Positions 144-21,141 of a stretch of DNA of 26,141 nucleotides are shown here, in pieces. The stretch covers positions 1 through 26,141 of the forward strand of contig CAYPOY010000027.1 in assembly GCA_964412395.1 (NCBI GenBank), in the 5' to 3' direction. The DNA is from an uncultured Anaerolineales bacterium. Its GTDB lineage: Bacteria; Chloroflexota; Anaerolineae; B4-G1. How positions within the stretch are numbered: the first letter of the stretch is position 1; every line of letters begins with the position of its first letter. The notes under the pieces are model-generated. The model did no database searches. It was not told the origin of the DNA and was given only the letters and a program-made list of their open reading frames with translations. The position numbers and the translations under genes are program-made.

Positions 144-809
144 TCAAGGCAGCATCAACACCAGAACCAGCGCTGAGACGGCTGGGACGGTCAGGTTATC
201 AACGCCCCACGGTGAGATCGCCTCGATGACCGTTGCGCCAAGTGCGGTCACGGCTGCGGCGCTCACCGCTGCGGCCGGGTCCAAGGGCGCTGGGGCCAGC
301 AGCATCAGCGGCACGAGCGTCGCTGCCCAACTGGTGAGGAACATCACCAGCGATCCCTCCAGCGAGCGGGTGCTTCCGGCGACGGTGTAGCGCCGCTTCC
401 CGATGCGCCGTCCCACCACGGCGGCCAGCGCGTCTCCCCACGTCATCGGCATCAGGCTCGCCACCAGCAGGTGCGGGCGGTCCCACAGCAGCCAGATGAG
501 CACCACAAACGACATAGGGAAGTAGATGGTGCCCAACTGCCCTTTTTCTCCGGTCTCCATCGCCTTGAATGTTCCGCGCCAGTAGGAGAGGGCGTTGATG
601 GCGATGAAGGCTGCCGGGGGAATCAGCGCGAAGGTGCGGTGCTCGAACAGCAGCACCGTCCCGTAGGCCCACATGCCGACCGCGATGTGGATAAACTTGC
701 GCGTGAACTCGACCGAGTAGCCGCGCCACCTGCGCAGCCCCTCGGCGATGCCGATTGCGGCGAAGACGTAGACGAAGGAGGTGAGGAGGGCGATGGTGTC
801 TTGTGACAT
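144..809 (-). CDS. Integral membrane protein of the CTP-transferase / CdsA-dolichol-kinase-phytol-kinase family (phosphatidate cytidylyltransferase-like)
   Basis: 221-aa hydrophobic multi-TM ORF. The C-terminal motif 'WGDALAAVVGRRIGKRRY...TRSLEGSLVMF' matches the CTP_transf_1 signature (GD..A...G...GK.K ... K/R-S/T-x-EG). A strong SD (GGAGGTGA) sits 7 nt upstream of the ATG at 809. Confidence 0.65.
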   Translation of the reverse strand: MSQDTIALLTSFVYVFAAIGIAEGLRRWRGYSVEFTRKFIHIAVGMWAYGTVLLFEHRTFALIPPAAFIAINALSYWRGTFKAMETGEKGQLGTIYFPMSFVVLIWLLWDRPHLLVASLMPMTWGDALAAVVGRRIGKRRYTVAGSTRSLEGSLVMFLTSWAATLVPLMLLAPAPLDPAAAVSAAAVTALGATVIEAISPWGVDNLTVPAVSALVLVLMLP

Positions 810-902
810 GTCAGATCACCTCCGAGATAGAGAATGTTCAGCGATGAGGGCGCTCGTTAGCTCTGGGCAAGCAAGTAACGACAGGGGCTGCAAGCCTTCC
901 GC

Positions 903-3368
903 TCAGCCAGGGGATATGACCACCCGAAACCCGAGATCATCTCCACAGTTGTCCGGAACCACCCCGAAGCGGATTGCGGATCGAACGCATCCAATTACAA
1001 AGGAAAACGATCCTCCACGCATTACCCGGAGGCCCTCAGCGTCCGAATCTTTCCGATCCTTCCCAGGATCGTAAGGATACTTCCTGTACAAGCTCCGCGT
1101 CCACTCCCACACGTTCCCACTGAGATCCTCCACTCCATATGGACTTGCGCCATCTGGGAAACATCCTACCGCGCTTGTCGTACGAAGTCCTGTATCTGCG
1201 CAGTTTGCGCGCGCCGGGTCGGGCATATCTCCCCACGGATAGGGCGGTGGTGGCTCGTTTTTGGGATCATCCAAGAACTCCAAGCCGCCTCGCGCGGTTT
1301 TCTCCCACTCTGCCTCCGAAGGCAGTATCACTACCCAACCCTCTTCACGTAACAGGTGCGCTAGCGGTTCCGGTGTCCCCTCCCACCGACGCAAACGTTC
1401 TGTAAGCCAACGGCAGTACGCCATCGCATCGTGCCAAGTGACCCATACCGCTGGGTGGTTGTCCAGGCCCCGAAGGCTGTTCTTATCCGTTGGTTTGTAC
1501 CTACTGGCCTCCACGAAGGCCCTGAACTGGGCCACCGTCACCAGGTAGCGGGCAACATAACGAAGACCGAGCCGACCTCTCTTGTGAGGTTTTTCTCGCT
1601 CGTACCAATATCGTTCCCAGCCAAGCCGGTTCAACAAGATGCAGACATCTCTCTGGCTTTTCCGTGTCCCTATCTCGAAGTCTCCCGCTGGGATCTCGAC
1701 AAAGCCTAGCAGCAGTTCTGGCTTTCCTTGATAGACCTTAGGCAAGTAGGAGGCGTCAGGGTCAAAACGTGGATCGCCTATCAGCGCCAGAGTGTTCCCT
1801 GCGCTCGTCCGTTCATTCACGGTGCGGGCGGGGTCGCGTATCAATCGTAGCAACTGATCCCGCAGATTCTGGTGTAGTGGCCCTTTCTGCTCCGGCTCCT
1901 CCCCTTTCAGCCGCTCTATCGCATCCCGTATTCGCGCCCGGTCGCCACTTAACATCTCCGCTAGCAATTCGGCTGGAGCCTCCATAATTGACTCCGAAGC
2001 CCCCATCGCACTAGCCAACCATGTGTAAACAGTGATCTGATCCCGGCTCAATCCCTCAAAACGAGCTCGCTTACACACTTCCTCCCCTTCTTCCGGGAGG
2101 GGGAAGGCTAGCATCCTTTCTAGCAAGGTGTAGCGGCGCTGGTCAGTCAAATATGGGCTAATCAAGTCACTCACCACTACCTCGCCCTCCACTCTCACCA
2201 GAGGTGGGGCAAGCGGGCGTCGGTCCCCTAGAGACTTTTCCTCGGTTATGACTCGGCGAGTGTACTCCGCCTCCAGTATCTGCACAAGCGTGGGGTACTG
2301 CCGCCAATCTTGATAGAGCTCGGGCCACTGAGTCTGGATGAGGACCGTCTTGGCCAACAGCGGCCAGGCAATACTATTGGGACGTAATCCACCCTCCGAC
2401 TCTGGCCGCTTCTCTCGCTCCAGAACAATCCCCTTCAGCAGGCGGAAGACGCTCAGCGCCTGCCTCACCTGTCGAGGGTCAGGGTAGAGGCCACGGGCGA
2501 AGACTGTCCGCGTCATCTTGCCCAGGCGATCATCGGCATGCTTTCCCTTCTCCACGGTCAGGATGTATTTGTCCAGATCCTCTACCGCCAGGGAAGGCAG
2601 TTGGAGAGAAATCTGCACAGCCTTCTGCAAGTAGGGATCCCCCTGCATGGCTGATTCCGTCTGCTCGGCTCCCTTCTCCTGGAAGGAGGCTCCATAGCGG
2701 GCCTCGACCCCTTGCTGGATCACTTCTCGGTCCATCCCCAGCACAAAGACCGTACCCGATACTCCCAGAAACAATCTAATCGCCTCTAGCATCTCCATCG
2801 CCTTCCCCGGCAGGCACAGGTCTAGACCATCTACGAAGATGATCAGTCGGCCATTCTCCTTCAGGCGCAACCGCAAGATTTCTTGGAACGCGGCCTTAAA
2901 TTGCTCCATCTTGGTTGGCTGCTCCAGCGCACAAAGGCTCAAGGCCAGGCGGTCCAGGTGGTCTACTTGTTCCTTCCGTCGCTCATCTAGGTCCTCGATG
3001 GGGACACGCATCCGCCTCTCTCTGGCGTCCTCGCTCTTTTCACGAGGGTAGAGAGAGTCGAGAACCCGGAGGGTGAAGGTCCGCCAAAGGTACTCGTGAC
3101 ACTCATACTTCCAGGCAGTAAACCAGACGGTGAGGACGGAGTGACGACTCTCGTCGTCTATCTCATCATTCTTGTCTACCTCTTCCTTGAGCATCCGCAG
3201 TAGGATTGTCTTACCGCTCTCCCAGGGACCGAAAACCCCCACTGTCAGCGGGGTCTCAGTCTTCATCAGGATACGCAGCAGGGCCGGGCAGAAGTCGGAG
3301 AAGCCCAAGTTGTCCCGCGGGTCCCAACAGTCCGGCCGGTAGCCAGCGTGCCTTGAGGCATCTCCCAT
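903..3368 (-). CDS. KAP-family P-loop NTPase fused to a C-terminal formylglycine-generating-enzyme (FGE/SUMF1-sulfatase-modifying) domain
   Basis: 821 aa. Walker A 'VGVFGPWESGKT'. KAP-type Walker B 'LIIFVDGLDLCLPGKAMEMLEAIRLFL' (the hhhhDDLDRC-type motif of KAP NTPases). C-terminal FGE hallmarks: 'YLVTVAQFRAFVEAS', 'HPAVWVTWHDAMAYCRWL', 'LPSEAEWEKTARGG', 'SPYGVEDLSGNVWEWT', 'RVMRGGSFS', 'LGFRVV'. SD-like 'GGAAGTGA' upstream of the start. Confidence 0.85.
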   Translation of the reverse strand: MGDASRHAGYRPDCWDPRDNLGFSDFCPALLRILMKTETPLTVGVFGPWESGKTILLRMLKEEVDKNDEIDDESRHSVLTVWFTAWKYECHEYLWRTFTLRVLDSLYPREKSEDARERRMRVPIEDLDERRKEQVDHLDRLALSLCALEQPTKMEQFKAAFQEILRLRLKENGRLIIFVDGLDLCLPGKAMEMLEAIRLFLGVSGTVFVLGMDREVIQQGVEARYGASFQEKGAEQTESAMQGDPYLQKAVQISLQLPSLAVEDLDKYILTVEKGKHADDRLGKMTRTVFARGLYPDPRQVRQALSVFRLLKGIVLEREKRPESEGGLRPNSIAWPLLAKTVLIQTQWPELYQDWRQYPTLVQILEAEYTRRVITEEKSLGDRRPLAPPLVRVEGEVVVSDLISPYLTDQRRYTLLERMLAFPLPEEGEEVCKRARFEGLSRDQITVYTWLASAMGASESIMEAPAELLAEMLSGDRARIRDAIERLKGEEPEQKGPLHQNLRDQLLRLIRDPARTVNERTSAGNTLALIGDPRFDPDASYLPKVYQGKPELLLGFVEIPAGDFEIGTRKSQRDVCILLNRLGWERYWYEREKPHKRGRLGLRYVARYLVTVAQFRAFVEASRYKPTDKNSLRGLDNHPAVWVTWHDAMAYCRWLTERLRRWEGTPEPLAHLLREEGWVVILPSEAEWEKTARGGLEFLDDPKNEPPPPYPWGDMPDPARANCADTGLRTTSAVGCFPDGASPYGVEDLSGNVWEWTRSLYRKYPYDPGKDRKDSDAEGLRVMRGGSFSFVIGCVRSAIRFGVVPDNCGDDLGFRVVISPG

Positions 3369-3484
3369 GCTTTCACTTCCTATTCACACAGGACGTAGTT
3401 TTATCCAGCTTGTCGCCCCCATGCATCATTGTTGCATCTCTTCCCTTACGGCACCCAGAACCTCAGAGGCAAGATTTCCAGAGA

Positions 3485-6070
3485 TCAAAGACGGACGAGA
3501 GCCGCTACCAGGCGGAAGCCCCGGCGCCAGTTGACACTACCAGGGACGTCCCCACTCCGGGCAGCGCAGCGGACACGCCCACGACTGCTGCTGAAGGAGC
3601 CGCCACGCACAACCCAACTCCCCACTGCTTCCAGGTCTTCCCGGCCGTCTCCCGGAGCATAGGGATATGCCTTGAGTAGGCTTCGCGTCCACTCCCACAC
3701 ATTCCCGTTTAGGTCCTCAACGCCGTACGTGCTCACACCTCTCGGAAAGCACCCTACCGTGCTCGTAGTCCCGATGGCCGTATCGCTGTAATTAGCTTGC
3801 TCCGAGTCTGGCTCATCTCCCCACGGAACAGTACGCCCGTCCGTTCCGCGCGCTGCCTTCTCCCATTCCGCCTCTGAGGGAAGCGTGATCAGCCACCTTC
3901 GTTCCCGCAGCAGCATCGCTAGCGGTTCCGGCATCCTCTCCCACCCCCGGAATATCTCCGTCAGCCACTCGCAGTACTTCAGCGCCTCGTACCAACTCAC
4001 TCGCACCACCGGGTGATTATCCAAGCCCCGGAGGCTGCCTTCATCTTCAGGTTGATGCCCGCTCGCCTCCACGAAGGCCCTGAACTGGGCCACCGTCACC
4101 GGGTAGCGGGCGATGTAGTAGGGCGGCAGGATGACCTCGTGCTGGGGGACTTCCCGCTCGTACCATTCCTGCTCTCCACCGAAGCGCTCTAACAGCCCCG
4201 GGATTTCTTCCTCCCGCGTGCCCATCAGGAACGGCCCCTCCGGCACCTCTATGAAGCCCAAAAGCGGCTCGTCGGGGAGGTGCCAGGCATCGGGCCGGAA
4301 GCGGGGGTCGCCCAACAAGGCCAGGGCATCTCCCGTGCTCACCCGCTGCCACGCGGGGCGGGCGGGCTCACGCACCACCTCCAAAAGCCGCTTCCGTAAG
4401 GCCCGGTGCAGGGGCCCCTCCCGCTCCGGCTCCTGCTCTGCCAGCCGCGCAGCCGCCTCCTGCACCTGCGCCCGGTCGCCGCTGAGCATCTCTGCCAAGA
4501 GATCAGCCGGAGCCTTCAGGAATGGCTCTGGTGCCTCCACAGCGCCGGCCAGCCGCATGTAGATGGCCATCTCCTCCCGGCTCAACCCCTCAAAGCGCGC
4601 CCGCTCTCGCCCCCGCCCGGTCTTCTCCGGTTCTGGGAAGGTCATCGTCCGCTCTAGAAGAGCATACCTACGACGGTCGCGCAGGTACGGCGTCAGCAGG
4701 CCACCCTCCGAGGCTTCCTCTCCCTCACCACCCTTACTCCGCGGCAGCACAAGTCGACCCCACAGGGCGTCCTCCTCCGTGGCGGGCTCACGTGCGTATG
4801 CTTCCTCAAGTGTCTGCACCAGTGTGTGGTAATGTCGCCATTTGTCGTAGAGTTTGGGCCACTGGGTCTGGATGAGCACCGTCTTGGCCAACAGCGGCCA
4901 AGCCACACTTTCCTTCGGCAGCCCGCCTCGCTCCTCCCGCGCCAGCGCGATCTCCCGCAGCAGGCGGAAGATATTCAGCGCCCGCTTCACCTGACGGGGA
5001 TTGGGGAAGAGCCCGTTGGCGAAGACCGCCCGCGTCATCTCACTCAGGCGGGCATCGGCGCGCACGTCCCTCTCCAGCGCTAGGATGTACTCCTCCAGGT
5101 CTTCCACCGCCAGCGGTGGCAGGTGGAAAGGAATCTGCACGATCTTCTGCAGGTAGTCGGCCCCGCTGATGACTGGCAGTTGGCGCGCTTCCTCCGCCTC
5201 GACTCCCAGCGTCCGTTGCAGTTCCCGGTACTTGACCTGGATGCCCCGCTCGATCACCCCCCGGTCCACGCCGATGACGAAGACGCAGCCCTCTACGTCG
5301 AGGAAGAGTTTGATCGCCTCCAACACTTCCACTGCCTTCTCCGGCAGGCAGCGGTCCAGGTCGTCCACGAAGACGACCAGCCGCCCCTCATCTCCCAGGA
5401 TCAACCTCAGGGCCTCTTGGAACGTAGCCTCGAACTGCTCCATCGAGGCCAGTTGCTCCCGGTGGTAGGCGTGGACCTCGCGGCTGAGCACATCTGCCCC
5501 TTGCTCGCCATTCAGCACCCTCGCCAGCGCATCCTTGAAGAACGCAGCGCCAGGTATGAGCGCAGCGGCGATCTCAGCGGCAGCCTGACCTCCCGCCTGA
5601 GCTGCTTGCCACCAGTTCACCGTCCACCGGCCCAGTTCCTCCCAGTCCACTGGTTGGTAGACGCTCTCCTCCAGCCGCTGGAGTATATCTACCTGCCGCT
5701 TCTGCTCTCCCTGAGGGTCCGGCAGACGGGGGTGCTCCTCCCACGAGCCTTCGCCGGGCTCACGAGGGTAAAGGGCATCCAGCACGCGGAGGATGAAGGC
5801 CCGCCAGAGAGCCTCGTGGCGGTCGTATTTCCAGGCGGTGAACCAGACGGGGCGGACGAAGCGTAGACTTTCGCGCTCTATGTCACCCTTGAGCATCCGC
5901 AGGAGGCTGGTCTTGCCGCTGCCCCAGGGGCCAAAGACCCCTATCGTCAGCGGGGTCTGGGCCTTCATTAGGATATTCAGCAGTGCTGGGCGGAAGTCGG
6001 AGAACCGCAGGTCGTCCCGCAGGGTCCAGTAGTCCGTTAGGTAAGCAGTGCGCTTCGTGACATCTCTCAT
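3485..6070 (-). CDS. KAP-family P-loop NTPase - FGE-domain fusion, tandem paralog of 903..3368. The ORF-track start at 6121 is probably 17 codons too long.
   Basis: Walker A 'IGVFGPWGSGKT'. KAP Walker B 'VVFVDDLDRCLPEKAVEVLEAIKLFL'. FGE motifs 'YPVTVAQFRAFVEASG', 'HPVVRVSWYEALKYCEWL', 'LPSEAEWEKAARG', 'STYGVEDLNGNVWEWT', 'VVRGGSFSS', 'RGFRLV'. The ATG at 6070 is preceded by a strong SD 'TAGGAGGTGG' at 6-7 nt. The ATG at 6121 has only a weak 'GGTGG'. Alignment with the paralog's N-terminus ('YRPDCWDPRDNLGFSDFCPAL' vs 'YLTDYWTLRDDLRFSDFRPAL') supports the shorter start. Confidence 0.85.
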   Translation of the reverse strand: MRDVTKRTAYLTDYWTLRDDLRFSDFRPALLNILMKAQTPLTIGVFGPWGSGKTSLLRMLKGDIERESLRFVRPVWFTAWKYDRHEALWRAFILRVLDALYPREPGEGSWEEHPRLPDPQGEQKRQVDILQRLEESVYQPVDWEELGRWTVNWWQAAQAGGQAAAEIAAALIPGAAFFKDALARVLNGEQGADVLSREVHAYHREQLASMEQFEATFQEALRLILGDEGRLVVFVDDLDRCLPEKAVEVLEAIKLFLDVEGCVFVIGVDRGVIERGIQVKYRELQRTLGVEAEEARQLPVISGADYLQKIVQIPFHLPPLAVEDLEEYILALERDVRADARLSEMTRAVFANGLFPNPRQVKRALNIFRLLREIALAREERGGLPKESVAWPLLAKTVLIQTQWPKLYDKWRHYHTLVQTLEEAYAREPATEEDALWGRLVLPRSKGGEGEEASEGGLLTPYLRDRRRYALLERTMTFPEPEKTGRGRERARFEGLSREEMAIYMRLAGAVEAPEPFLKAPADLLAEMLSGDRAQVQEAAARLAEQEPEREGPLHRALRKRLLEVVREPARPAWQRVSTGDALALLGDPRFRPDAWHLPDEPLLGFIEVPEGPFLMGTREEEIPGLLERFGGEQEWYEREVPQHEVILPPYYIARYPVTVAQFRAFVEASGHQPEDEGSLRGLDNHPVVRVSWYEALKYCEWLTEIFRGWERMPEPLAMLLRERRWLITLPSEAEWEKAARGTDGRTVPWGDEPDSEQANYSDTAIGTTSTVGCFPRGVSTYGVEDLNGNVWEWTRSLLKAYPYAPGDGREDLEAVGSWVVRGGSFSSSRGRVRCAARSGDVPGSVNWRRGFRLVAALVRL

Positions 6071-6218
6071 CGCCCCACCTCCTAAATCCAGTACCGTTCG
6101 GTTAAGCGGTTCCATTTCCATCGTAGATGGTGGTAGAATACCACCAGACCGACGGAAAGGAGCCGTGCGATGGGAGTTACCTTAGAGAAGATGGTTGTTG
6201 ACACTGGCAATCTTGGCC

Positions 6219-7202
6219 CTACACTGGCTTCAGCAGCGCGGTGATGTATCCGACCTGGAAATCCTTGTCGATGTCCTCACCACCGATCACTGTAGCATCG
6301 GATCGGATGAAGTTGATTTTGCCATCGGCACCACGCTTGAAATGACCAAATTCCGGTCCGCCGAGCGTCTCCAGCACGCCGGGGCCCTCTTTATCGGCCT
6401 CCTTCCCCCGACCCACCAGCGCATAGTCCCCCTTGCTGGCGCCCAGAGTCCCACGTGCTTCATCGGGAATCTCCAGGGCATAGTACTTGACACCAGGATC
6501 CAAGAAGATGCGTCGGGTCCCCTTCAGAGGCTGCATACGGAACGACTTCCCGTTGACTATCAGCCGGCGCTCTACCCTGTACCTATCAATCTCTAGTTCC
6601 GCTATAGCGAATCCGGGCTCTTCACCCTCTGATAAGACGATGGGCACCCAGATGCCAGTGGCGAGGCTCGTATCCGTGCGGGTCCGGATGGCGGTCAGGT
6701 ATTCGCTCAGCGTCTCCATCCAGCGTCGAACGCGGGTGCAGGTCTCTACCTGGGCCAGGGCATTGACGGTGGTCCAGTCATCCTTGACCCTCTCAAACAG
6801 CTCACCCGACGCCTGGTACCACTTCAGCGCGTCCATTTCGCTGCCGAGCAACTGATGCACCAGTCCGAGAGCGTAGGCAGCCACCGCCTCATTGTGGCGC
6901 TGATAGTGGGACGGTTGACGCTGGAAGAAGCGGTAGGCTTTTTGGCAGTCGGCCAACGCCGGGCCTAGTTTGCCCATATCCCGGTGCACGTCCGCCAGGT
7001 GGATTAGAGCCACCGCCTGACTGACGTTGGCGCCTGGTTCCTGGCTGGCCTGCATAGCATCCAGCACACAGCGCTCGGCCTCCGGCAATCTGCCTTCCCT
7101 GCGCAGCGAGCGGGAGCCTCGCAATAGTTCGTCAATGGATTGCGATAGTTCCTCGCAGCAAAGCAGTTCGGACGGAGTTAGTTGTGGTGGCAAGTTGATC
7201 AT
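6219..7202 (-). CDS. Two-domain protein: N-terminal TPR-like helical repeats plus a C-terminal beta-rich domain of uncertain family (possibly an S24/LexA-like fold)
   Basis: 327 aa. The N-terminal ~170 aa have a helical TPR-like pattern ('AVALIHLADVHRDMGKLGPALADCQKAYRFF', 'AVAAYALGLVHQLLGSEMDALKWYQASGELF'). The C-terminal ~150 aa are Gly/Lys-rich beta-type sequence ('IWVPIVLSEGEEPGF...GASKGDYALVGRGKEAD...GHFKRG'). SD 'GGAGGG' 4 nt upstream of the ATG at 7202. A 24-nt gap to the upstream gene suggests an operon. Confidence 0.6.
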   Translation of the reverse strand: MINLPPQLTPSELLCCEELSQSIDELLRGSRSLRREGRLPEAERCVLDAMQASQEPGANVSQAVALIHLADVHRDMGKLGPALADCQKAYRFFQRQPSHYQRHNEAVAAYALGLVHQLLGSEMDALKWYQASGELFERVKDDWTTVNALAQVETCTRVRRWMETLSEYLTAIRTRTDTSLATGIWVPIVLSEGEEPGFAIAELEIDRYRVERRLIVNGKSFRMQPLKGTRRIFLDPGVKYYALEIPDEARGTLGASKGDYALVGRGKEADKEGPGVLETLGGPEFGHFKRGADGKINFIRSDATVIGGEDIDKDFQVGYITALLKPV

Positions 7203-7226
7203 ACGCCCTCCGGTGGCTCACCGACC

Positions 7227-8582
7227 TTACCTCTGCTCTGCGGGCGTCCCGGCTTCGGCCCCGAGCAGTGCCTGCAGTTGCCTCAACGTCCGCATCGCTT
7301 CGGGCGGCATGAACTCACGAGTGTAGGTGTTGTAGGACATCCAGCGCAGGGCCTCCACGAAGCGCAAGGCCAGGATGTAGGGCTCGATCGCTCCCTGGCT
7401 CACAACCGTGGATTGTAAGGCATCGGTAAGAGTCACCACCATCTCAGCCTGAGCCTGTATCCGGGCCATGTCCATCCGCAAAAGTTCCGCCTCCCCCTCC
7501 ACTCTGCTCGCCAGCGCTCGGGCCTCCCAGTCCGCGTGCCAGGCCTCGACCCATTGCTTGGAGACAATGTCGGAGAGTTGCTGGGCAATTTCCTTGTCCC
7601 TGGCCTTCACCTCGATCGCGCCTATTTCTACGTTGAGAATCTTGGCTCCTACGCTCCTCACCCCGTCTTGCAGTCCCTCTTCTAGCCGCTGGCGAATTTC
7701 TTCCCGTGGATGCTTCTGATCAGGTTGCGGCGGGGCGATCAGCCAATCCAGCCGGTACTCCGCCAGAATGTTGCGTAAGAGCCCCTCTACGGAACCGATT
7801 ACCACTCGCCCGGTCCACGCTATACGGGGGTCTTCACGATCTGGCTCGCGGATCCACTTGCTGGTCGCCGCCCGCAAGACAGCCTCCTCCGTATAGGGGT
7901 ACGGCGCTTCGCTAGTTGGTGTCTTGGTCTGCTCTCGCCCCTCTGCATCCTGGAATCGATCGTCAATCTTGAACAAGATGTCCGCCTCGCAACTGATCGG
8001 AATACCTTCTTTTGTCAGGGCAAACACTTCATATACCCAGTGCTGAGGACGCAGATCAATAATCTCCCAAACTTTCTCAAAGCGCTCCAACTGCGGGAAG
8101 CCGGCACCGAGAACCCGCTTGAGGCGTCCGTACTGCTCGGTGACGATCGCAGTGTCGTTGTAGACGACCAGTGAAGCAGGGCCGCCTATACGCCTGGCAG
8201 GAGTATCCTCCCCAGAGGCAATCTTTCCTTCCTTAACCAGGAGGTAGGGGCCGAACCCGAGTTTGCCGAATACAATACGGTTCAGCGAGTCGTGTGCTTC
8301 CTTGAGATCTTTAGTAGCGTGCAGTTTGTAGAATAGACGCGAAGCTAACAGAGGAACCGCTACCAGTGCGCCCACAACTGGAAGCACTATGCGCACGGAT
8401 GCAAGCGCCAGGGAAAGCATGGCCTGGATGGAGGCCAAGCCAGCCTGGTCGGGCTCAGGTGCGGTTTCAGCGCTGCGCAGCCACACCTCGGCTGCAAGGC
8501 CGAGTGCTACCGCCACCAGCAGGATCACACCCAACGTGAGCAACGTCCGCTTCAGGTTGTCCTTGTACCATTTCAGCGACAC
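7227..8582 (-). CDS. Membrane-anchored SPFH/band-7 (flotillin/HflK-like) domain protein with a C-terminal Glu/Ala-rich coiled coil
   Basis: 451 aa. GTG start at 8582 (reverse complement of 'cac' at 8580-8582) with 'GGAGAT' 8 nt upstream. N-terminal TM helices. SPFH-like core 'LVVYNDTAIVTEQYGRLKRVLGAGFPQLERFEKVWEIIDLRPQHWVYEVFALTKEGIPISCEADILFKI'. C-terminal 'ARALASRVEGEAELLRMDMARIQAQAEMVV' is a flotillin-type EA-rich helix. Clearly paralogous to 8608..10092. Confidence 0.7.
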   Translation of the reverse strand: MSLKWYKDNLKRTLLTLGVILLVAVALGLAAEVWLRSAETAPEPDQAGLASIQAMLSLALASVRIVLPVVGALVAVPLLASRLFYKLHATKDLKEAHDSLNRIVFGKLGFGPYLLVKEGKIASGEDTPARRIGGPASLVVYNDTAIVTEQYGRLKRVLGAGFPQLERFEKVWEIIDLRPQHWVYEVFALTKEGIPISCEADILFKIDDRFQDAEGREQTKTPTSEAPYPYTEEAVLRAATSKWIREPDREDPRIAWTGRVVIGSVEGLLRNILAEYRLDWLIAPPQPDQKHPREEIRQRLEEGLQDGVRSVGAKILNVEIGAIEVKARDKEIAQQLSDIVSKQWVEAWHADWEARALASRVEGEAELLRMDMARIQAQAEMVVTLTDALQSTVVSQGAIEPYILALRFVEALRWMSYNTYTREFMPPEAMRTLRQLQALLGAEAGTPAEQR

Positions 8583-8607
8583 GCCAGTATCTCCATGCCT
8601 CGTTTCG

Positions 8608-10092
8608 CTACTCTGTGATGGCCTTGCGGATACCTAGCAGCGCCTGCAGGGTCTCTCCGGGCACCAGCCGTCCCAGCGTAGGCTGCTGTCTCATCAACTC
8701 ATCTAGAATTGACACGAGCAGGTTGAGGGCTACTTCGGGGCGGAGTTCCGTTCTTGCTGTGCTCAACTCTTCCAATTGGCGGCCCAGGTTCAGGATCAAG
8801 TCCGCTTGTGCCTCTGCTCGTGCGCGCTCTACCATGCGCAGCCATTCGGCCTGCCCCTCGGCCTGCTTGAGCATGATCTTGCGTGCCCAGTCCGCCTGCC
8901 AACTGCGCACCCGTTCTACGTACACCTGAGGGTCCGCCGGCTCCAGGTCGCTGATTCCCGCACCGATTAACTGAATACCCAGCGGCTCCAGTTCTGCCGC
9001 TACCTGCTCATAGAACCTTCCTGCGATGACTTTGCGCGGAGGCTTGCCGCCGGGCTGGTAAGGACCATACAAGTCGTCAAAATTATATTCGCTTATAATG
9101 TTCTGCAAAGTGCGCTTGGCAATCATGCGCGGCAGATCGTCCCACGAGCATTGCTTCTTTTCACCGCCCTCGTGCTCCATCTTCTGGGCGTGAATGGCCC
9201 TGAATGCAGCGCCTTTGTTGTAGGGCAGAGGCTCGCCCAGCCTCGACTGCCTGCCGCGTGCATCAATCTTGAACGGTGTGAAAGCCAGCACTCTGATCTT
9301 GATGCCATCCTTGGTCAGCGCCTCCACGTGAAAGGCGCGCAACTGCGGTCGGAGATCAATGGTTCGCACAATCTGGTCGCTGAACCCGGTGAAGATAACA
9401 CCTGGACCTTTCGCTCCTTTAAACTTGAGGCCGTCAGAGATCGCCACCGCGTGGTCGCAGCCAGTGAGGATGAAGCCGGGGCTTGTCGTAAGCCGACTAA
9501 ATGGATTGCCAGGCACTCGCTCCTCCACCTTATCTTCCTCGTGTAACTCGTCCACCACAACGTAGGCGGGGAAATTCACGTGCGATATATAATCCCGCAG
9601 GAAGCTGAAGACCTTGTCCCGATGGCCCTTACTGGGAAGTGGGAGCAGGAAGCCGCTCACGACATAGAGGCCCCGCAGAAAGACTGCGCCGCCTGCAACT
9701 AGAGATAATAGAAAGATCACGGCCCCCGCTATCGGAAGTGTACCCTCCCCCCGCACATGGCGAGCCAGGCCCGCGCCCCAGAGGATGGCGAGCATCAGCG
9801 TCACAACAACTGCGGCAGGCTTGAACTTGAGCCACAAGTAGAGCAGTAAACATACGCCGAGGCCCGCCAGCACCCAGCCGAACAGGGCCGCGAACAGTAT
9901 ATTGAGTACAGGCAAAAATTCGGTTAGGTTGAGTCGAGGTAGGAGTGTGGTTAGAGGGACGTGTAGCGCAAACAGTCCTATCAGAGCAAGCACTAGGAGT
10001 AGGGTGTAACAGCCAATCGGCCTGTGCAGGATACCGCCGATTGTCTCCCTTGAGTATTTAGCGAACCGTTCTTGTGGACTCTGTACTTCCAT
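8608..10092 (-). CDS. Multi-TM SPFH/band-7 (flotillin-like) domain protein, tandem paralog of 7227..8582
   Basis: 494 aa with about 4 N-terminal TM helices. SPFH-like core 'GPGVIFTGFSDQIVRTIDLRPQLRAFHVEALTKDGIKIRVLAFTPFKIDARG'. Coiled coil 'QADWARKIMLKQAEGQAEWLRMVERARAEAQADLILNL'. A 25-nt gap to the downstream gene suggests an operon. Confidence 0.7.
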   Translation of the reverse strand: MEVQSPQERFAKYSRETIGGILHRPIGCYTLLLVLALIGLFALHVPLTTLLPRLNLTEFLPVLNILFAALFGWVLAGLGVCLLLYLWLKFKPAAVVVTLMLAILWGAGLARHVRGEGTLPIAGAVIFLLSLVAGGAVFLRGLYVVSGFLLPLPSKGHRDKVFSFLRDYISHVNFPAYVVVDELHEEDKVEERVPGNPFSRLTTSPGFILTGCDHAVAISDGLKFKGAKGPGVIFTGFSDQIVRTIDLRPQLRAFHVEALTKDGIKIRVLAFTPFKIDARGRQSRLGEPLPYNKGAAFRAIHAQKMEHEGGEKKQCSWDDLPRMIAKRTLQNIISEYNFDDLYGPYQPGGKPPRKVIAGRFYEQVAAELEPLGIQLIGAGISDLEPADPQVYVERVRSWQADWARKIMLKQAEGQAEWLRMVERARAEAQADLILNLGRQLEELSTARTELRPEVALNLLVSILDELMRQQPTLGRLVPGETLQALLGIRKAITE

Positions 10093-10167
10093 AAAACGAC
10101 CTGTGGAGAAGGAACAACTTGGGCAAGATCGTGCGCTGTTTTGAAGGCTGAGATCACTGCGCGGTCC

Positions 10168-11217
10168 TTATTTCTTTTCCTCCTCCTTCATACGCCCCAC
10201 CTTGGTTATCCGGCTCCAGGGATCCGCTTCCACCTCATAAGTGGCGTAGATAGGGCGCTCTGTCCGCTCGCCTGTCAGACTTTCCTCCGTCTTGCTGCCC
10301 GCTCTTACGATTGCCTTGAGTCTGATCCCGCCATCGGCGGTTCGTTCCATCTCGTCCCATGTCCAACTTCTTGCCCCCTGTGTCGTCCCAGTGGGTGTCT
10401 TCGCGCCGCCGATCACTCTTGGCGTGATAGCTCTGTGTACAGCACGCCCTGCCTCGCGCTGCACGACCTTTACCAGCAGGTCTTCCCGCAGGAAAATTGG
10501 CTGCGGCAGCGCATCGTTCATTTTCTGCGCATAGGATAGGGCCGACAGAAGCGATGTTGCATAGGTAATAGAAATCATGAAAGTGACGTAGCTACCCATC
10601 AACATGAAAGGGAGAACCAGTCTGATTTTCTTGCGCAGGTCATCCATCTCATCTTGATCGGGTTGTCCTTCCTCGGTAGTTGTGTCATTCGTCGTTTCTT
10701 CCTGCTCCACCTGATCCAGATACGCCTGATCCATGAAGAACCACCGCGCCAATTTCCCCGGCATACTCGACGTGGTCATGCTGTACGCGACCACTACCAT
10801 CAGAAGTAGAGAGAGCCCAGGCAGCACAACTGCCCTCAACCGGATACCACCCAGCAATGCGCGGTGTCCCCGCTTGACTCGTTGCAGCAGTTCCTGCTCC
10901 CGTATGTCGTGGCGTGCGCCGTACGCTGCATGTGCAGCGACGAGGCACAGACATACGGTGACTACCACTGCCAGTAACCGAACGGCAAGGGTGATGCCCT
11001 CCCAGAACTCTATTCCTATCAAACCGCATGCTAGAGCAAAGCCGGTGAGGAGAAAAGGTAAAAAGGTCGGTTTATAGAACGCTAATAGACCCTCTATTCC
11101 CTCCTTCTCCTCATCCTGCGTCGCTCGCCAATCGTTCCAAAGGGTGTTGTCGGAACCACATCGATTGCATTTTTCCCCGGCCTTGTGGTACCCTTTGCAA
11201 ACGATGCATTCAGGCAT
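10168..11217 (-). CDS. Membrane protein with an N-terminal zinc-ribbon (CxxC..CxxC), about 5 TM helices and a C-terminal soluble domain of unknown function
   Basis: 349 aa. 'MPECIVCKGYHKAGEKCNRCGSDN' is a 4-Cys ribbon, followed by long hydrophobic segments. SD 'GGGAGGTAA' upstream of the ATG at 11217. First gene after a 430-bp non-coding gap. Confidence 0.6.
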   Translation of the reverse strand: MPECIVCKGYHKAGEKCNRCGSDNTLWNDWRATQDEEKEGIEGLLAFYKPTFLPFLLTGFALACGLIGIEFWEGITLAVRLLAVVVTVCLCLVAAHAAYGARHDIREQELLQRVKRGHRALLGGIRLRAVVLPGLSLLLMVVVAYSMTTSSMPGKLARWFFMDQAYLDQVEQEETTNDTTTEEGQPDQDEMDDLRKKIRLVLPFMLMGSYVTFMISITYATSLLSALSYAQKMNDALPQPIFLREDLLVKVVQREAGRAVHRAITPRVIGGAKTPTGTTQGARSWTWDEMERTADGGIRLKAIVRAGSKTEESLTGERTERPIYATYEVEADPWSRITKVGRMKEEEKK

Positions 11218-11269: not shown

Positions 11270-11312
11270 TAGAATATCACAGATTTATCCCAAACGCAAA
11301 TTCACGAAAAGC
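11270..11312 (-). promoter_or_regulatory. AT-rich patch in an otherwise GC-rich 430-bp intergenic region. Candidate promoter/UP region for the minus-strand membrane-module operon.
   Basis: 'agaatatcacagatttatcccaaacgcaaattcacgaaaa' stands out compositionally. No clean -35/-10 pair with 17-bp spacing could be assigned by eye. Confidence 0.25.
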
Positions 11313-11648
11313 GGTTGACCCAGGTGCCGACCACGCCGTCGCCAGCCGCTAGCTGGCTGGGCCGCTGCTACACCAACTTACTGTGTCCAGAGCAGAGCGG
11401 TCCGCTGGTAGATGTGTCTCTGTTACAGGCACACTACCCGAACGGATCAGGCTGTATGAGGGCTGAGGTCAGTGGGGTGGCATCGGGTGTGCCAGGGGGC
11501 TTGGGCTGTGTGCTGGTGCGAGCAACCGGGTCACACCGGTGTCGTTTGAGGATGGAACTATCCTGAATCTCTGCGATGGCCAGATTGCCCTGCGCTAGAT
11601 CGAACAGCGCTTTGAGCAGTATGGGATGGCTCTGGTGGCAGTGTTGTA

Positions 11649-11960
11649 TCAGAGGGGATTGCTCAATCTGGAGTCTGCAGCCTGAGGCGATTGTAATTGG
11701 CGTAGGGGCCGGGCCAGATTTTTGACTTCCCGCAGTTCGGATATATCCTTCCTTGCCTCTAGCCATACGCGGAGCCACGGGGCCAGCAGCGCCAAACTGG
11801 CTGGGAGTAGCGTCACGCCTGCAAGATACAGCAGCTGTGGGTCGGGCCCGATGACGTTAAAGAGCCAGACTATCCCACTGGCGGGTAGCAGCAGCCACAA
11901 CGCCGCCGCCATAGCAGTGTACTTCGGGGTTATAACGCATTTCGAGATTACCCGTTGCAT
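11649..11960 (-). CDS. Small (103-aa) two-TM membrane protein, divergent from the NTPase-wHTH gene. The start is corrected inward from the ORF-track 12020.
   Basis: The ATG at 11960 has a strong SD 'AAGGAGGT' 6 nt upstream. The ORF-track start at 12020 has none. Hydrophobic core 'AMAAALWLLLPASGIVWLFNVIG...LLYLAGVTLLPASLALLAPWLRVWL'. Confidence 0.4.
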   Translation of the reverse strand: MQRVISKCVITPKYTAMAAALWLLLPASGIVWLFNVIGPDPQLLYLAGVTLLPASLALLAPWLRVWLEARKDISELREVKNLARPLRQLQSPQAADSRLSNPL

Positions 11961-12078
11961 TTCTTGACCTCCTTGCTCTTGACTCAGGTTCCGGCCGGCG
12001 CTGCAACTGTGGTGTAACACGGCCAGGGATGCACCGACTTGCTACAATGCTATATTAACAGCGACCCATTTCAAACAC

Positions 12079-12114
12079 CGTGTCATGGAGCGTGTCAAAA
12101 AGCGTGTCAAAAAC
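12079..12114. promoter_or_regulatory. Three tandem 12-bp direct repeats CGTGTCA(t/a)(g/a)(g/a)a(g/c) in the divergent intergenic region. Candidate winged-helix (OmpR/PhoB-type) binding array.
   Basis: Read directly: cgtgtcatggag / cgtgtcaaaaag / cgtgtcaaaaac at 12079, 12091 and 12103. The GTGTCA cores have exact 12-bp periodicity. The half-site resembles the Pho-box CTGTCA. The array lies about 90-125 bp upstream of a sigma70-like promoter for the NTPase-wHTH gene and about 120 bp upstream of the divergent small-protein start. Confidence 0.5.
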
Positions 12115-12205
12115 AGGTCCCCCACCACGCCATCCCTCGGCTCCACGCACTGAACTTGAAGAGTATCCCAACCTTATCCCGAGTGCAGATGCGCCAAAAT
12201 GGGAT

Positions 12206-12234
12206 TTGCAGCCCCTGACCGCCGATGCTATAAT
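12206..12234 (+). promoter_or_regulatory. Candidate sigma70-type promoter (TTGCAG - 17 bp - TATAAT) for the NTPase-wHTH gene
   Basis: Perfect -10 TATAAT at 12229-12234 and a weak -35 TTGCAG at 12206-12211 with a 17-bp spacer. About 40 nt upstream of the ATG at 12277. Confidence 0.35.
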
Positions 12235-12276
12235 ACCTTTGACCGCCTGTTCTGCAACCTGCCTTTTGGAGCAGCC

Positions 12277-13833
12277 ATGCCTCCGCGAACACCGGATGAA
12301 CGACAACCTAACGCCACATCCTCAGAGCCCTGGTGGAAGCACCATGGTTTCACGGAGAATCCTTTCGCGCTGCGGGAGGCCGGACGGGAAACCCGGTTGT
12401 CAGAGTACTTCGTGCACGGGCCGGATTACGACGCAGTAAAGGGATCTCCCGACGATCCCCAAACGACCATCGTTTTCGCTGCCCGTGGCTGCGGCAAGAG
12501 CGCCTACCGCCGGATGATCCAGACCTCTTGCCGGCCAGACGACGAAGAGAGTACCATCCTGGCCGTTCCTCACACGGAGTTCTCGGATGTTTTGAATGCT
12601 GCAGGCAACCCTGTGGACGTTGCCCTGGAGATGCACATTGAGGCGCTCCTGTGCTCAGCGGCTACTACGTTGCTACAGGAATTCCTACGTCGCCCCACCT
12701 CGTTCGATCACCTGTCGCTTGAAGGCCGTGCGTTCTTCAAGTGGTTCATTCACACCTATGCCCCCCGCACCCTACGTCCTCTCAATTTGATCGAGGAACT
12801 GAGGGCTACGGAGGAGTTCCCGGAGATTGAGGAGCGGACGATGCGGGATGCCACGCGCTCACACGAGTGGTTCCTGGAGTGGCTTGAACGTCCCCCGATG
12901 GACAGGAACACTCAAGCCCGTTTGCTCCTGACACTCTTGCGCACCCAATCTGTCTCTCCACCTGAGAAGACGGCGCGAAGCCCAGTCGCACTGGTACGAG
13001 AGTTCGTGGACCTGGCGCGCCAGAGCGGGCTCCAGGCACTCTATTTTCTCATTGATGGCCTCGATGAACTGAGGATGACCGCCTCTGACCCGGCCGCAGT
13101 CGCTGGCCTGGTGGCCCCGTTGCTGGCGGAACTTCCCCTGATGGAACTCCCGCACACCGCCTTCAAGTTCTTCCTGCCTGCTGAGGCAACGACGGCCCTG
13201 CACATGCGGCGTGATAGCCGGCTGGATCGCTTCCCCATCTACCATCTCACCTGGAGGGACACCGACCTGGAGCAGATGCTCCAGCTGCGGCTGAGGGCCT
13301 TCAACGAGCGCGGAATAGGCGACCTAGGAGCCATCTCGGAGGAGGATATCGCGAGCCGTGTTGACCGGGACCTGGTCGAGATGGCTTATGGCTCTCCCCG
13401 CCGGCTGCTGATGCTGGGAGACGCGCTGTTTGCGGCTCACGCCGCCCGGTCGGGGGCCGGGCTGCTACTGAACCAGCAGGATTGGGAAGAGGCTTGCCGG
13501 AACTTTGAGCGCATCTTCGGCCCGCTGGTGCCGCCGCTGCGCGTGGATCGGGAGATGGGCAAAGTCTTTATCGGCGATGAGGAACTTCCATCTCGCCTTT
13601 CCCCTATGGAATTTGGATTGCTCGAGTTCCTGTACCGGGCTGGGGGGGGGCTGTGCAGCCGTGACAAAATCTCCTATGACCTGCATGAGCGCCCTGAATA
13701 TGGCGTCATCAGCGATGAGGCGTTCGATTCCCTTGTCCTCCGCCTGCGCCGCAAGATCGAGCGCCATCCCAAGCGGCCCGCTTATCTGATCACCGAGCGG
13801 GGAATGGGCTACCGGCTGGAGAACATCGGTTGA
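12277..13833 (+). CDS. P-loop NTPase (Walker B 'LIDGLDE', NACHT/AAA-like) fused to a C-terminal OmpR/PhoB-type winged-helix DNA-binding domain. Putative ATP-dependent transcriptional regulator.
   Basis: Start corrected to the ATG at 12277 ('MPPRTPDE...', GGAG 7 nt upstream). The ORF-track N-terminal extension has no SD. Walker A 'TIVFAARGCGKSAYRRM', Walker B 'ALYFLIDGLDELRM', 'KFFLPAE'. The C-terminal 'LSPMEFGLLEFLYRAGGGLCSRDKISYDLHE...FDSLVLRLRRKIERHPKRPAYLITERGMGYRL' is a classic Trans_reg_C (OmpR-family) wHTH. Homologous NTPase module to the next gene. Confidence 0.8.
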   Translation: MPPRTPDERQPNATSSEPWWKHHGFTENPFALREAGRETRLSEYFVHGPDYDAVKGSPDDPQTTIVFAARGCGKSAYRRMIQTSCRPDDEESTILAVPHTEFSDVLNAAGNPVDVALEMHIEALLCSAATTLLQEFLRRPTSFDHLSLEGRAFFKWFIHTYAPRTLRPLNLIEELRATEEFPEIEERTMRDATRSHEWFLEWLERPPMDRNTQARLLLTLLRTQSVSPPEKTARSPVALVREFVDLARQSGLQALYFLIDGLDELRMTASDPAAVAGLVAPLLAELPLMELPHTAFKFFLPAEATTALHMRRDSRLDRFPIYHLTWRDTDLEQMLQLRLRAFNERGIGDLGAISEEDIASRVDRDLVEMAYGSPRRLLMLGDALFAAHAARSGAGLLLNQQDWEEACRNFERIFGPLVPPLRVDREMGKVFIGDEELPSRLSPMEFGLLEFLYRAGGGLCSRDKISYDLHERPEYGVISDEAFDSLVLRLRRKIERHPKRPAYLITERGMGYRLENIG

Positions 13834-13846
13834 CCGGAGGAGGTGA

Positions 13847-16189: not shown

Positions 16190-16222
16190 ATGTAAGCTAG
16201 GCGCAAGCTAAATGCCAGGTGG

Positions 16223-16256
16223 CTGTCATACGGTTGTCAGTCTGCTATGATATAAT
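16223..16256 (+). promoter_or_regulatory. Pho-box-like direct repeat (CTGTCATA-cgg-TTGTCAg, 11-bp periodicity) positioned 10 bp upstream of a TATAAT -10 hexamer. An activator-dependent promoter architecture in front of the STAND genes.
   Basis: Read directly: ctgtcata at 16223-16230, ttgtca at 16234-16239 and tataat at 16251-16256 (also tatgat at 16246-16251). The layout, with a Pho box replacing the -35 and sitting 10 bp before the -10, is that of PhoB-dependent promoters. It shares the TGTCA half-site with the 12079-12114 repeats. Confidence 0.5.
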
Positions 16257-16347
16257 AATAAGGGGTTTAGTCAGGTCTGGCTTGATTGTAACTGGTGAGA
16301 TAGCAGGCAGGTCATTATGGGCGGAAATTCGTTAACTAGGAGAATCA

Positions 16348-17823: not shown

Positions 17824-17859
17824 TGCTGGAGAACCTGCCGCATCTGCTCTACCAGCCGA

Positions 17860-17890
17860 CCCATCGCCTCCGGCGGTGGGTTTTTGTTGT
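17860..17890 (+). terminator. Rho-independent terminator: 9-bp stem (cccaucgcc / ggcgguggg, one G-U pair), short loop, then uuuuuguugu
   Basis: Read directly, 37 nt after the stop of 16348..17823. The GC-rich stem is followed by a T5 tract. Confidence 0.65.
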
Positions 17891-17917
17891 AACAAGTGGC
17901 GGAAGTGCTAATTCTGC

Positions 17918-17947
17918 TTGACATATGCCCCTCTTTTGTCGTATAAT
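17918..17947 (+). promoter_or_regulatory. Perfect-consensus sigma70 promoter TTGACA - 18 bp - TATAAT driving the STAND-TPR / SIR2-STAND operon
   Basis: ttgaca at 17918-17923 and tataat at 17942-17947. An AT-rich context in a GC-rich genome. Located between the terminator and the corrected GTG start at 18043, giving a 5' UTR of about 90 nt. Confidence 0.6.
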
Positions 17948-18042
17948 AATGATATGCTGTAACACCTTGCCAGGCGTCGTCAGACTTGACAGAGAGCATA
18001 GTATTCGACGTCAGGCCGCTACTTACTCTCCAGGAGGCTACA

Positions 18043-20937: not shown

Positions 20938-21122
20938 AACCTGCTAGCAGTGGCAAGATTGAGACCAGTGCCTCCTATTCATCTCAAGCGCTCTCGCTGT
21001 TCCAAGTGGAGGGTATGCCAGCGTCCCAACCCCCTGTCGTTGAACTTATGGCGGAGGGCGATGACTGCAAATATCCGGCAAGACCGGAGCGCACGCTGGA
21101 TACGCAATGTGGCGACTGTTGA
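20934..21122 (+). CDS. Hypothetical 62-aa protein, translationally coupled (ATGA overlap) to the upstream STAND-TPR gene
   Basis: The ATG at 20934 overlaps the TGA stop at 20935-20937. SD 'GAGAGGAGA' 4 nt upstream. It ends 19 nt before the GTG start of the SIR2-STAND gene. It contains 3 Cys, has no recognisable domain, and no homolog could be checked. Confidence 0.35.
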   Translation: MKPASSGKIETSASYSSQALSLFQVEGMPASQPPVVELMAEGDDCKYPARPERTLDTQCGDC

Positions 21123-21141
21123 ATAGTCGCGGGGAGCAGGT

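Follow-up and report, generated by a model that had tools for sequence, protein, structure and literature searches.

We examined a pair of tandem genes, here called A1 and A2, in a 26,141-bp stretch of DNA from an uncultured Anaerolineales bacterium (the window, which is the entire contig CAYPOY010000027.1, ~59% G+C). Both genes encode a KAP NTPase joined through a middle region to a C-terminal domain resembling formylglycine-generating enzyme (FGE), and they lie co-directionally on the minus strand. The genes and their domains are arranged as follows.

903–3368, minus strand: A1, 821 amino acids (aa); KAP – middle region – FGE-like domain, with degenerate ATPase motifs and without the insert described below
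3485–6121, minus strand: A2, 878 aa; full KAP NTPase – helical middle region – FGE-like domain (FGS, C-type-lectin fold)
3369–3484: spacer between A2 and A1, 116 nt, 99–100% identical to that of the related locus L081
4949–5986, minus strand: KAP P-loop domain of A2, residues 46–391 of the 878-aa open reading frame (ORF)
4271–4945, minus strand: helical middle region of A2, whose last helix, 'ALALLGDPRF', leads into the FGE-like domain
3506–4255, minus strand: FGE-like domain of A2, both catalytic cysteines gone
918–1703, minus strand: FGE-like domain of A1, placed by Pfam and by alignment with human FGE; no catalytic Cys pair

An alternative start of A2, the ATG at 6070 chosen by NCBI, gives a protein of 861 aa. 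Pfam KAP_NTPase (PF07693, cutoff 20 bits) matches the N-terminal third of both proteins, with 91.9 bits for A1 (E 5.5e-26) and 116.3 bits for A2 (E 2e-33), and FGE-sulfatase (PF03781, cutoff 23.3 bits) matches the C-terminal third, with 147.6 bits (E 6.9e-43) and 168.2 bits (E 3.5e-49), respectively. The two proteins are paralogues with an identity of 49% by BLASTP and 56% in the MAFFT alignment. Tandem KAP-FGE fusions had been proposed at this place in an earlier reading of the DNA (the original prediction), and because the Pfam profiles match both domains in both paralogous ORFs, this core observation is confirmed, including the KAP assignment and the GNVWEWT, RGGSF and GFR motifs, which are seen in A1 and A2 alike. 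The location and the fusions therefore stand; two further statements, a diagnostic KAP Walker B motif in both proteins and adjacency to a STAND cluster, hold only in part, as described below.

The AlphaFold2 model of A2 is confident (pLDDT 84.7, pTM 0.76), with the insert alone at pLDDT 40–50. The middle region, which has no Pfam match, is folded into helices in this model and is specific to the family, as ~60 representative clusters align across the KAP and middle regions; its final ~45 residues are shared with ToxD (7spq). The N-terminal ~30–45 residues before the P-loop of A1 and A2 contain no Pfam domain. Terminator-like and promoter-like sites were scanned for in the spacer (3369–3484) and none was seen, in a scan that is uninformative.

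ATPase motifs are intact in A2 and degenerate in A1

We compared the ATPase motifs in an alignment of 43 family members and in a motif census of 255 homologues. The relevant features are listed below.

5909–5932, minus strand: Walker A of A2, GPWGSGKT, the commonest string of the family
5348–5377, minus strand: Walker B of A2, VVFVDDLDRC (...EAIKLFL), canonical KAP hhhhDDxDR
5444–5662, minus strand: insert of A2 between Walker A and B, ~70 residues
3207–3230, minus strand: Walker A of A1, GPWESGKT; Lys-Thr kept, Glu at the fourth position, which is Gly in all others
2814–2843, minus strand: degenerate Walker B of A1, IIFVDGLDLC (...EAIRLFL); second acidic residue replaced by Gly, Arg by Leu

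A2 fits both the Walker A and the Walker B pattern of the KAP family, whereas A1 fits only the former. The GxxxxGK[ST] signature of Walker A is retained in 43 of 43 aligned members, and 42 of them share the Walker B string xxFVDDLDRC, A1 being the exception. Likewise, A1 alone lacks DDhDR among the full-length proteins of the census, although it retains the first Walker B Asp. The insert between the two motifs is present in 42 of the 43 members and missing only in A1, in which Walker A and Walker B are ~130 residues apart (129) against a family median of 192. The original prediction of a diagnostic KAP Walker B in both proteins is thus correct for A2 (VFVDDLDRC) and incorrect for A1, where VDGLDLC is accompanied by GPWESGKT and by the loss of the insert.

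The A2 insert sits at the position of the transmembrane hairpins of classical KAP NTPases. Transmembrane helices within the P-loop domain are said to have been described by Aravind and co-workers in 2004 as typical of many prokaryotic KAP members. In the insert, no 19-residue window reaches transmembrane-grade hydropathy in any of the 43 members, and a transmembrane insert was rejected on this ground.

The FGE-like domain lacks the catalytic cysteines of FGE

To place the catalytic residues, we used human SUMF1 residues 86–374, which are 100% identical to PDB 1y1e, as the reference. Cys336 of human FGE is aligned to Ser in A2 and to Phe in A1, and Cys341 falls into a 3-residue deletion of A1 and A2; a Cys pair at this position was found in 0 of the 43 aligned family members. 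No sulfatase family is matched in the 13 large ORFs of the window, nor among the neighbours in eight homologue contexts. A genuine FGE that matures a sulfatase, as might be read from the strong Pfam match and from the JGI label of family members ('formylglycine-generating enzyme required for sulfatase activity'), was therefore rejected, and its chance is practically nil: both Cu-binding cysteines are gone, the window has no sulfatase gene, and true FGEs are weak matches of the domain (E ~1e-11, against ~5e-31 for ToxD). The original prediction had likewise noted that no sulfatase gene is nearby and had argued against a maturation role, and the proposed inspection of the catalytic Cys pair now bears it out for both proteins. 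The labels 'formylglycine-generating enzyme' and 'SUMF1/EgtB/PvdO nonheme iron enzyme', which are widespread in the annotation of such proteins despite the missing catalytic residues, should be corrected accordingly.

The best sequence and structure matches of the domain are ToxD (7SPQ) and CalU17 (7ML6/6VQP) with 32–41% identity. Both also lack the FGE Cys pair, and in both a helix with the 'LLGDPR' motif precedes the domain, as in the A1/A2 family; in contrast to A1 and A2, they are stand-alone proteins of ~300 aa from the toxoflavin and calicheamicin clusters, without an NTPase. SUMF1 FGE and EgtB/OvoA share the fold and the Pfam family with the A1/A2 domain. However, A1 and A2 differ from SUMF1 in the absence of Cys336 and Cys341 and of sulfatase genes nearby, and from EgtB, OvoA and SenA in the absence of the DinB iron-binding domain with its His triad and of ergothioneine genes. 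The NCBIfam enzyme models EgtB, SenA, PvdO, OvoA and GldK all score far under their cutoffs for A1 and A2 (EgtB, 84 bits against 360; SenA, 65 against 420), and none of the large ORFs of the window belongs to the DinB, QueC, TatD or deaminase families.

The C-terminal loop is homologous to a retroelement-diversified surface

Diversity-generating retroelements (DGRs) copy a template repeat (TR) into a variable repeat (VR) of a target gene with adenine-specific changes. Each protein ends in a loop between RGGSF and GFR that corresponds to the VR of known DGR targets.

3506–3607, minus strand: VR-equivalent loop of A2 (RGGSFSSSRGRVRCAARSGDVPGSVNWRRGFRLV), RGGS...GFR, residues 839–872
918–1019, minus strand: VR-equivalent loop of A1 (RGGSFSFVIGCVRSAIRFGVVPDNCGDDLGFRVV), residues 784–817

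The loop occupies the position of the catalytic-Cys loop of FGE and ranks with the most variable parts of this domain across the family (entropy 2.37 bits per column, compared with 0.9–1.3 in the core). Between RGGSF and GFR, A1 and A2 have different residues at over half of the positions. When all loci retrieved were scanned, pairs of template and variable repeats whose mismatches are specific to adenine were found in six loci with FGE-domain relatives (L019, L022, L033, L039, L063 and L067), with 86–100% of the TR/VR mismatches at A. An ORF resembling reverse transcriptase (RT) is also present in three of the six, and three loci have two VRs each. The targets are NACHT-FGE, TIR-NACHT-FGE, TIR-FGE and kinase-FGE proteins, and the VRs of seven confirmed DGR targets match the A1 and A2 loops column for column. 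Because the VRs of these relatives align exactly on the two loops, the A1/A2 domain is a homologue of a retroelement-diversified ligand-binding domain. The fold and the loop position also match those of the DGR variable proteins TvpA (2Y3C), TaqVP (5VF4) and Mtd (1YU0).

In the window itself, we found no repeat of the gene 3' ends, no adenine-biased TR/VR pair, no RT-like ORF and no Rfam match, and no TR/VR pair or RT-like ORF was present in L081–L083 or the other full-length KAP-FGE loci scanned. The method works, since the same scan found the DGRs of the six relatives. A1 and A2 thus differ from DGR-diversified NTPase–C-type lectin (CLec) sensors in having no template repeat, no reverse transcriptase and no adenine-specific variation. 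The A2 loop is unchanged in L081, a relative with ~87% identity, and by this comparison the loop is germline-fixed between close relatives.

KAP-FGE proteins form a modular family

The full-length KAP-FGE architecture is common to more than 100 homologues. When the KAP and middle regions of A2 were used as the query, 863 representative clusters were found at E<=1e-30, of which ~60 align across the whole query and are 800–900 aa long; a related-locus search in genome contigs yielded FGE-only relatives for the most part, with few full-length proteins. Most of the full-length members belong to metagenome-assembled genomes (MAGs) of Chloroflexota (Anaerolineae, Caldilineaceae), and others come from a Saprospiraceae MAG (Bacteroidota), Thermodesulfobacteriota and Burkholderiales. 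On plasmids, only QatA-type KAPs with ~26% identity were found, and in phages there was no match. Related KAP modules (38–51% identity) are joined to FGE via other linkers, to HEAT repeats or to EAD7/EAD1, or stand N-terminal to NB-ARC and TPR; EAD7/EAD1 occur only in KAP proteins without FGE. This mix of partner domains follows the syntax of the NTP-dependent conflict systems described by Kaur et al.

This architecture has precedents. KAP-FGS proteins were named among predicted conflict systems, next to the STAND NTPase-FGS systems in section 7 of the same paper, by Kaur et al. (eLife 2021, PMC8195603), following the description of the FGS domain in Kaur et al. 2020 (PMC7159879). These authors predicted that FGS binds invader molecules directly, stated that a KAP ATPase may replace the STAND NTPase in NTPase-FGS systems, and noted that two or more copies per organism are common (PMC8195603). 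Loci of DGR clade 5D with two NTPase-CLec targets, some of them KAP NTPases, were reported by Doré et al. (PNAS 2024, PMC10907252), and FGE-sulfatase-like sensors are listed among STANDs (Nature 2026, PMC13581612). KAP NTPases fused to diverse C-terminal regions are antiphage proteins whose defence requires both Walker B and the C-terminal region (PLoS Biology 2026, PMC13552941).

A1 and A2 consist of an NTPase and a C-terminal FGS domain, as NTPase-FGS systems do, and differ from them in having no N-terminal effector-associated domain (EAD) or effector domain, no matching EAD-effector genes and no DGR, and in that one copy is ATPase-degenerate. With the antiphage KAP proteins they share the architecture of KAP plus a C-terminal module only; the tested proteins have other C-terminal regions, and EF_KAP has transmembrane helices. 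The best named sequence families for the N-terminal half are the QatA, PifA and PDC-S20 profiles. QatA binds DNA and forms 7-8-mers (PMC13279940); the two proteins studied here score 170 and 114 bits against 600 (NCBIfam NF041923), show ~26% identity to plasmid QatA, and have no qatB, qatC (QueC-like) or qatD (TatD) gene in the window. RdrA of RADAR (PDB 8FNT, 8FNU) is 11–14% identical to A1 and A2, which have no PADLOC RdrA match, and it has no FGE-like domain; nor is there an RdrB adenosine deaminase gene here.

We then looked at the surroundings of the more distant KAP-FGE homologues (50–63% identity), all of which are solitary within ±10 kb. Their neighbours include IS66, AbiEii, a type III methylase and a NACHT-FGE gene (L084); a kinase, an HATPase_c_3+FokI protein, a methylase and a WYL protein (L085); a RES-Xre pair, LexA and an MmeI-type enzyme (L086); an AAA_15/21 ATPase and a methylase (L087); an excisionase-like helix-turn-helix protein and a ParA-like gene (L088); and a PemK pair and a Schlafen-like ATPase (L089/L090). 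Restriction–modification, toxin–antitoxin, Abi or Schlafen-like neighbours thus occur at solitary homologues in five of seven other contexts, which is suggestive of defence islands. As a separate observation, the NACHT-FGE gene of L084 (12727–15945, 1072 aa) directly follows the solitary KAP-FGE gene, making a mixed-NTPase tandem with no detectable DGR.

A predicted lectin-fold sensor on a KAP switch

With moderate confidence, we propose from these comparisons that A1 and A2 carry a non-catalytic lectin-fold sensor on a KAP switch and serve a counter-invader role, as members of the predicted 'NTPase-FGS' systems. The lectin-fold domain would bind an invader-derived molecule, such as a phage protein or a glycoconjugate, via its variable C-terminal loop surface, and ligand binding would relieve the autoinhibition of the KAP module. 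The KAP module may then oligomerise and hydrolyse ATP in the way of its ring-forming relatives RdrA and QatA, and the response would be delivered via the KAP module and its insert or via a partner encoded elsewhere. A putative sensing role of the FGE-like domain, which the original prediction had raised, fits the alignment of the loops with VRs, the modularity of the KAP family and published predictions (PMC8195603, PMC10907252, PMC13581612).

Several observations weigh against this proposal. The A1–A2 unit has no recognisable effector domain, EAD, DGR or known partner gene. The evidence from neighbours is anecdotal, with eight contexts and no background control, and one of these (L094) has metabolic genes only. 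The best structural matches, ToxD and CalU17, are proteins of biosynthetic pathways, and NTPase-fused CLec domains are experimentally uncharacterised according to Doré et al. 2024 (PMC10907252). Moreover, when A2 of the window is compared with that of L081, the FGE domain is the most conserved part (94%, against 83% for KAP); since the loop is also identical, rapid diversification is not apparent over the time that separates the two.

How the two copies would work together is a more tentative matter. A1 can most likely bind nucleotide but not hydrolyse it, and it might co-assemble with A2 to serve as a further sensor of different tuning or as a regulatory subunit, comparable to the sensor of a sensor/helper NLR pair, rather than act autonomously. 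We regard this putative A1–A2 interaction as possible, though somewhat doubtful. An obligate hetero-oligomer, in which the ATPase-dead, insert-less A1 would be the sensor or brake, A2 the executor and the KAP insert the output element, is an unlikely form of it; if true, bacteria would have in the KAP family a counterpart of the paired sensor/helper NLRs, germline-encoded and independent of a DGR.

The alternative that A1 and A2 are independent, equivalent receptors of different specificities, each working alone, is improbable. It would agree with the differences at most positions of the VR-equivalent loops, with the frequent occurrence of multiple NTPase-FGS copies per organism (PMC8195603) and with purifying selection on both genes. 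However, A1 alone among the 255 homologues has no DDhDR Walker B, its insert is missing, and mutation of Walker B ended defence in a tested KAP protein (PMC13552941). Because A1 has lost the motif on which defence depends in that protein, an autonomous A1 is unlikely. For the same reason, namely the degenerate ATPase motifs and the missing insert, the view in the original prediction that the two copies represent diversified recognition is half the story at best: the loops do differ, but the copies are not equivalent.

The matches to ToxD and CalU17 raise another alternative, in which the FGE-like domain is a Cys-less enzyme of the ToxD/CalU17/PvdO type that acts on a small molecule or peptide under the control of KAP, as part of a metabolic or biosynthetic unit. 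This is quite improbable, given that the loop equivalent to the active site is variable across the family and has no conserved candidate catalytic residue, while the invariant positions sit in motifs common to FGE-like domains generally. Furthermore, there is no DinB/His-triad domain, the enzyme models score far under their cutoffs, and no biosynthetic neighbours recur, the neighbours varying in every context.

A third alternative keeps the sensor and makes A1 and A2 the targets of a DGR at some other place in the genome, a layout with two targets being common for DGRs of clade 5D. Its appeal lies in the FGE-domain relatives that are confirmed DGR targets, three loci having two VRs each, in the KAP NTPase-CLec targets and two-target loci of Doré et al. 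2024 (PMC10907252), and in the possibility noted by Kaur et al. (PMC8195603) that the DGR is located elsewhere in the genome. We nevertheless consider it highly doubtful: neither the 26-kb contig nor L081–L083 nor the other full-length KAP-FGE loci scanned have a TR-like repeat or an RT-like ORF, the loop is the same in orthologues whose genes differ by 3–12%, and the loop codons, which include Trp, do not have an NNC/AAC-derived pattern.

NTPase-fused FGE/lectin-fold domains have been proposed as bacterial 'antigen receptors', and A1 and A2 would belong to this predicted class, with the active/degenerate paralogue pair as their distinctive point. A compact unit of two genes that has neither a retroelement nor an additional effector would be a simple system in which to ask about the ligand, the output of KAP and whether a catalytically dead paralogue serves as a partner subunit.

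A1 is a maintained duplicate

The orthologue of A1 in L081 is 96.6% identical, has the same degenerate motifs and gives a dN/dS of 0.25; for A2, the orthologue is 87.9% identical with a dN/dS of 0.21. Positive selection was rejected, as dN/dS is below 1 in every window of both genes. In a neighbour-joining tree, A1 lies on a long branch within the subclade of A2, the simplest reading of which is an old lineage-specific duplicate that diverged fast. The loss of the ATPase motifs and of a 70-residue segment, together with this long branch, could suggest a decaying duplicate without function, but that is very unlikely: the ORF of 821 codons is intact in two lineages, no 80-codon window of A1 has a dN/dS above 0.8, and the A1 segment shows what is apparently the latest exchange between the lineages. 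By these measures A1 is not a pseudogene; it is degenerate and yet under purifying selection in both.

Nucleotide identity between the window and L081 is mosaic, with 98–100% over 1200–3600 and 77–94% elsewhere. The stretch of high identity runs from the 3' end of A2 through the spacer and over most of A1, and the flanking core genes have lower identity. Relative to L081, dS is 0.064 for A1 and 0.25–0.36 for its neighbours, which suggests recent recombination or transfer of the A1 segment alone between the two lineages.

The pair is inserted in a variable slot next to a conserved operon

Upstream of A2 on the minus strand lies a conserved Anaerolineae operon (6219–11217), consisting of the following genes.

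10168–11217, minus strand: Zn-ribbon protein with four transmembrane helices (4-TM)
8608–10092, minus strand: SPFH/Band-7 membrane protein
7227–8582, minus strand: second SPFH/Band-7 membrane protein
6219–7202, minus strand: TPR protein with a beta-rich uncharacterised C-terminal half

The closest relative (L081–L083) shares the co-directional block of the window, with a 352-aa Zn-ribbon/TM protein, two SPFH proteins, the TPR protein, A2, A1 and a 220-aa membrane protein; its flanks differ from those of the window, and the plus-strand STAND/SIR2 cluster (below) is absent. The TPR protein belongs to a 139-member orthologous family in Anaerolineae of nearly constant length. In L092, SPFH-SPFH-TPR is followed after 60 nt by a 221-aa gene, a 261-aa gene and UvrC, without KAP-FGE, and the 221-aa proteins of the window and L092 are 81% identical. 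The same slot holds five genes in L091, including an AlaX-like gene, a GAF kinase and response regulators, and in L093 other genes follow the TPR gene. The limits of the slot between the TPR gene and the 221-aa gene are given below.

Window, 809–6219: A2 and A1
L091, 9987–17669: five genes
L092, 9987–10048: empty

Because L091, L092 and L093 keep SPFH-SPFH-TPR without KAP-FGE, the SPFH/TPR genes represent, on gene order, a core operon that is conserved, whereas A1 and A2 are accessory genes inserted together into a variable slot of the Anaerolineae order SPFH-SPFH-TPR, 221-aa gene, UvrC. The same contexts led us to reject the SPFH, TPR and Zn-ribbon genes as partners. It is scarcely credible, then, that the pair works with the neighbouring membrane operon (Zn-ribbon/4TM, two SPFH, TPR) in a housekeeping membrane role, even though the genes share one direction with short gaps between them, all seven genes of the block are kept in the 87% relative and classical KAP NTPases are membrane-associated. 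The SPFH-SPFH-TPR genes are kept across Anaerolineae without KAP-FGE, L092 largely refuting such a role; KAP-FGE homologues elsewhere never stand beside SPFH/TPR, and the family has no transmembrane-grade segment.

The STAND/SIR2 cluster was also rejected as a partner, as it is absent from L081–L083. The original prediction placed the pair adjacent to a STAND cluster, which is true only loosely: ~6 kb of core genes (6219–11217) lie between them, and the cluster is missing in the closest relative that has the pair.

Other features of the window

The remaining genes of the window are listed below.

12199–26117, plus strand: cluster of six P-loop/STAND-type genes, made up of the next six entries
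12199–13833, plus strand: Sll1717/DS41_1-like ATPase fused to an OmpR-type winged helix
13847–16189, plus strand: HEAT + DS41-like protein
16348–17823, plus strand: AAA_22 protein
17986–20937, plus strand: STAND-TPR protein
21142–23592, plus strand: SIR2_2 + P-loop protein with a ThsA/PDC-S65-like SIR2
23589–26117, plus strand: second STAND-TPR protein, overlapping the SIR2_2 gene by 4 nt
144–809, minus strand: 221-aa multi-pass membrane protein with a 'GDALAAVVGRRIGKRRY' motif

At the position of the plus-strand cluster, L092 has a Trans_reg_C protein and an ATPase_2 gene. The 221-aa membrane protein has no Pfam or NCBIfam match at E<0.01; its 'GDALAAVVGRRIGKRRY' motif is reminiscent of the dolichol/phytol kinase – CDP-diglyceride synthase superfamily. 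Directly 3' of this gene, a long G/C-rich inverted repeat at 56–144 is hairpin- or terminator-like, with arms of 33 nt (66–98 and 101–133) that are 85% complementary. Upstream of the Zn-ribbon gene, the region 11300–12100 is 41–73% identical to L081, except for 11690–12101 at 83%. The latter segment is the counterpart of a 100-aa gene in L081 (4175–4477), and in the window it contains only overlapping minus-strand ORFs.

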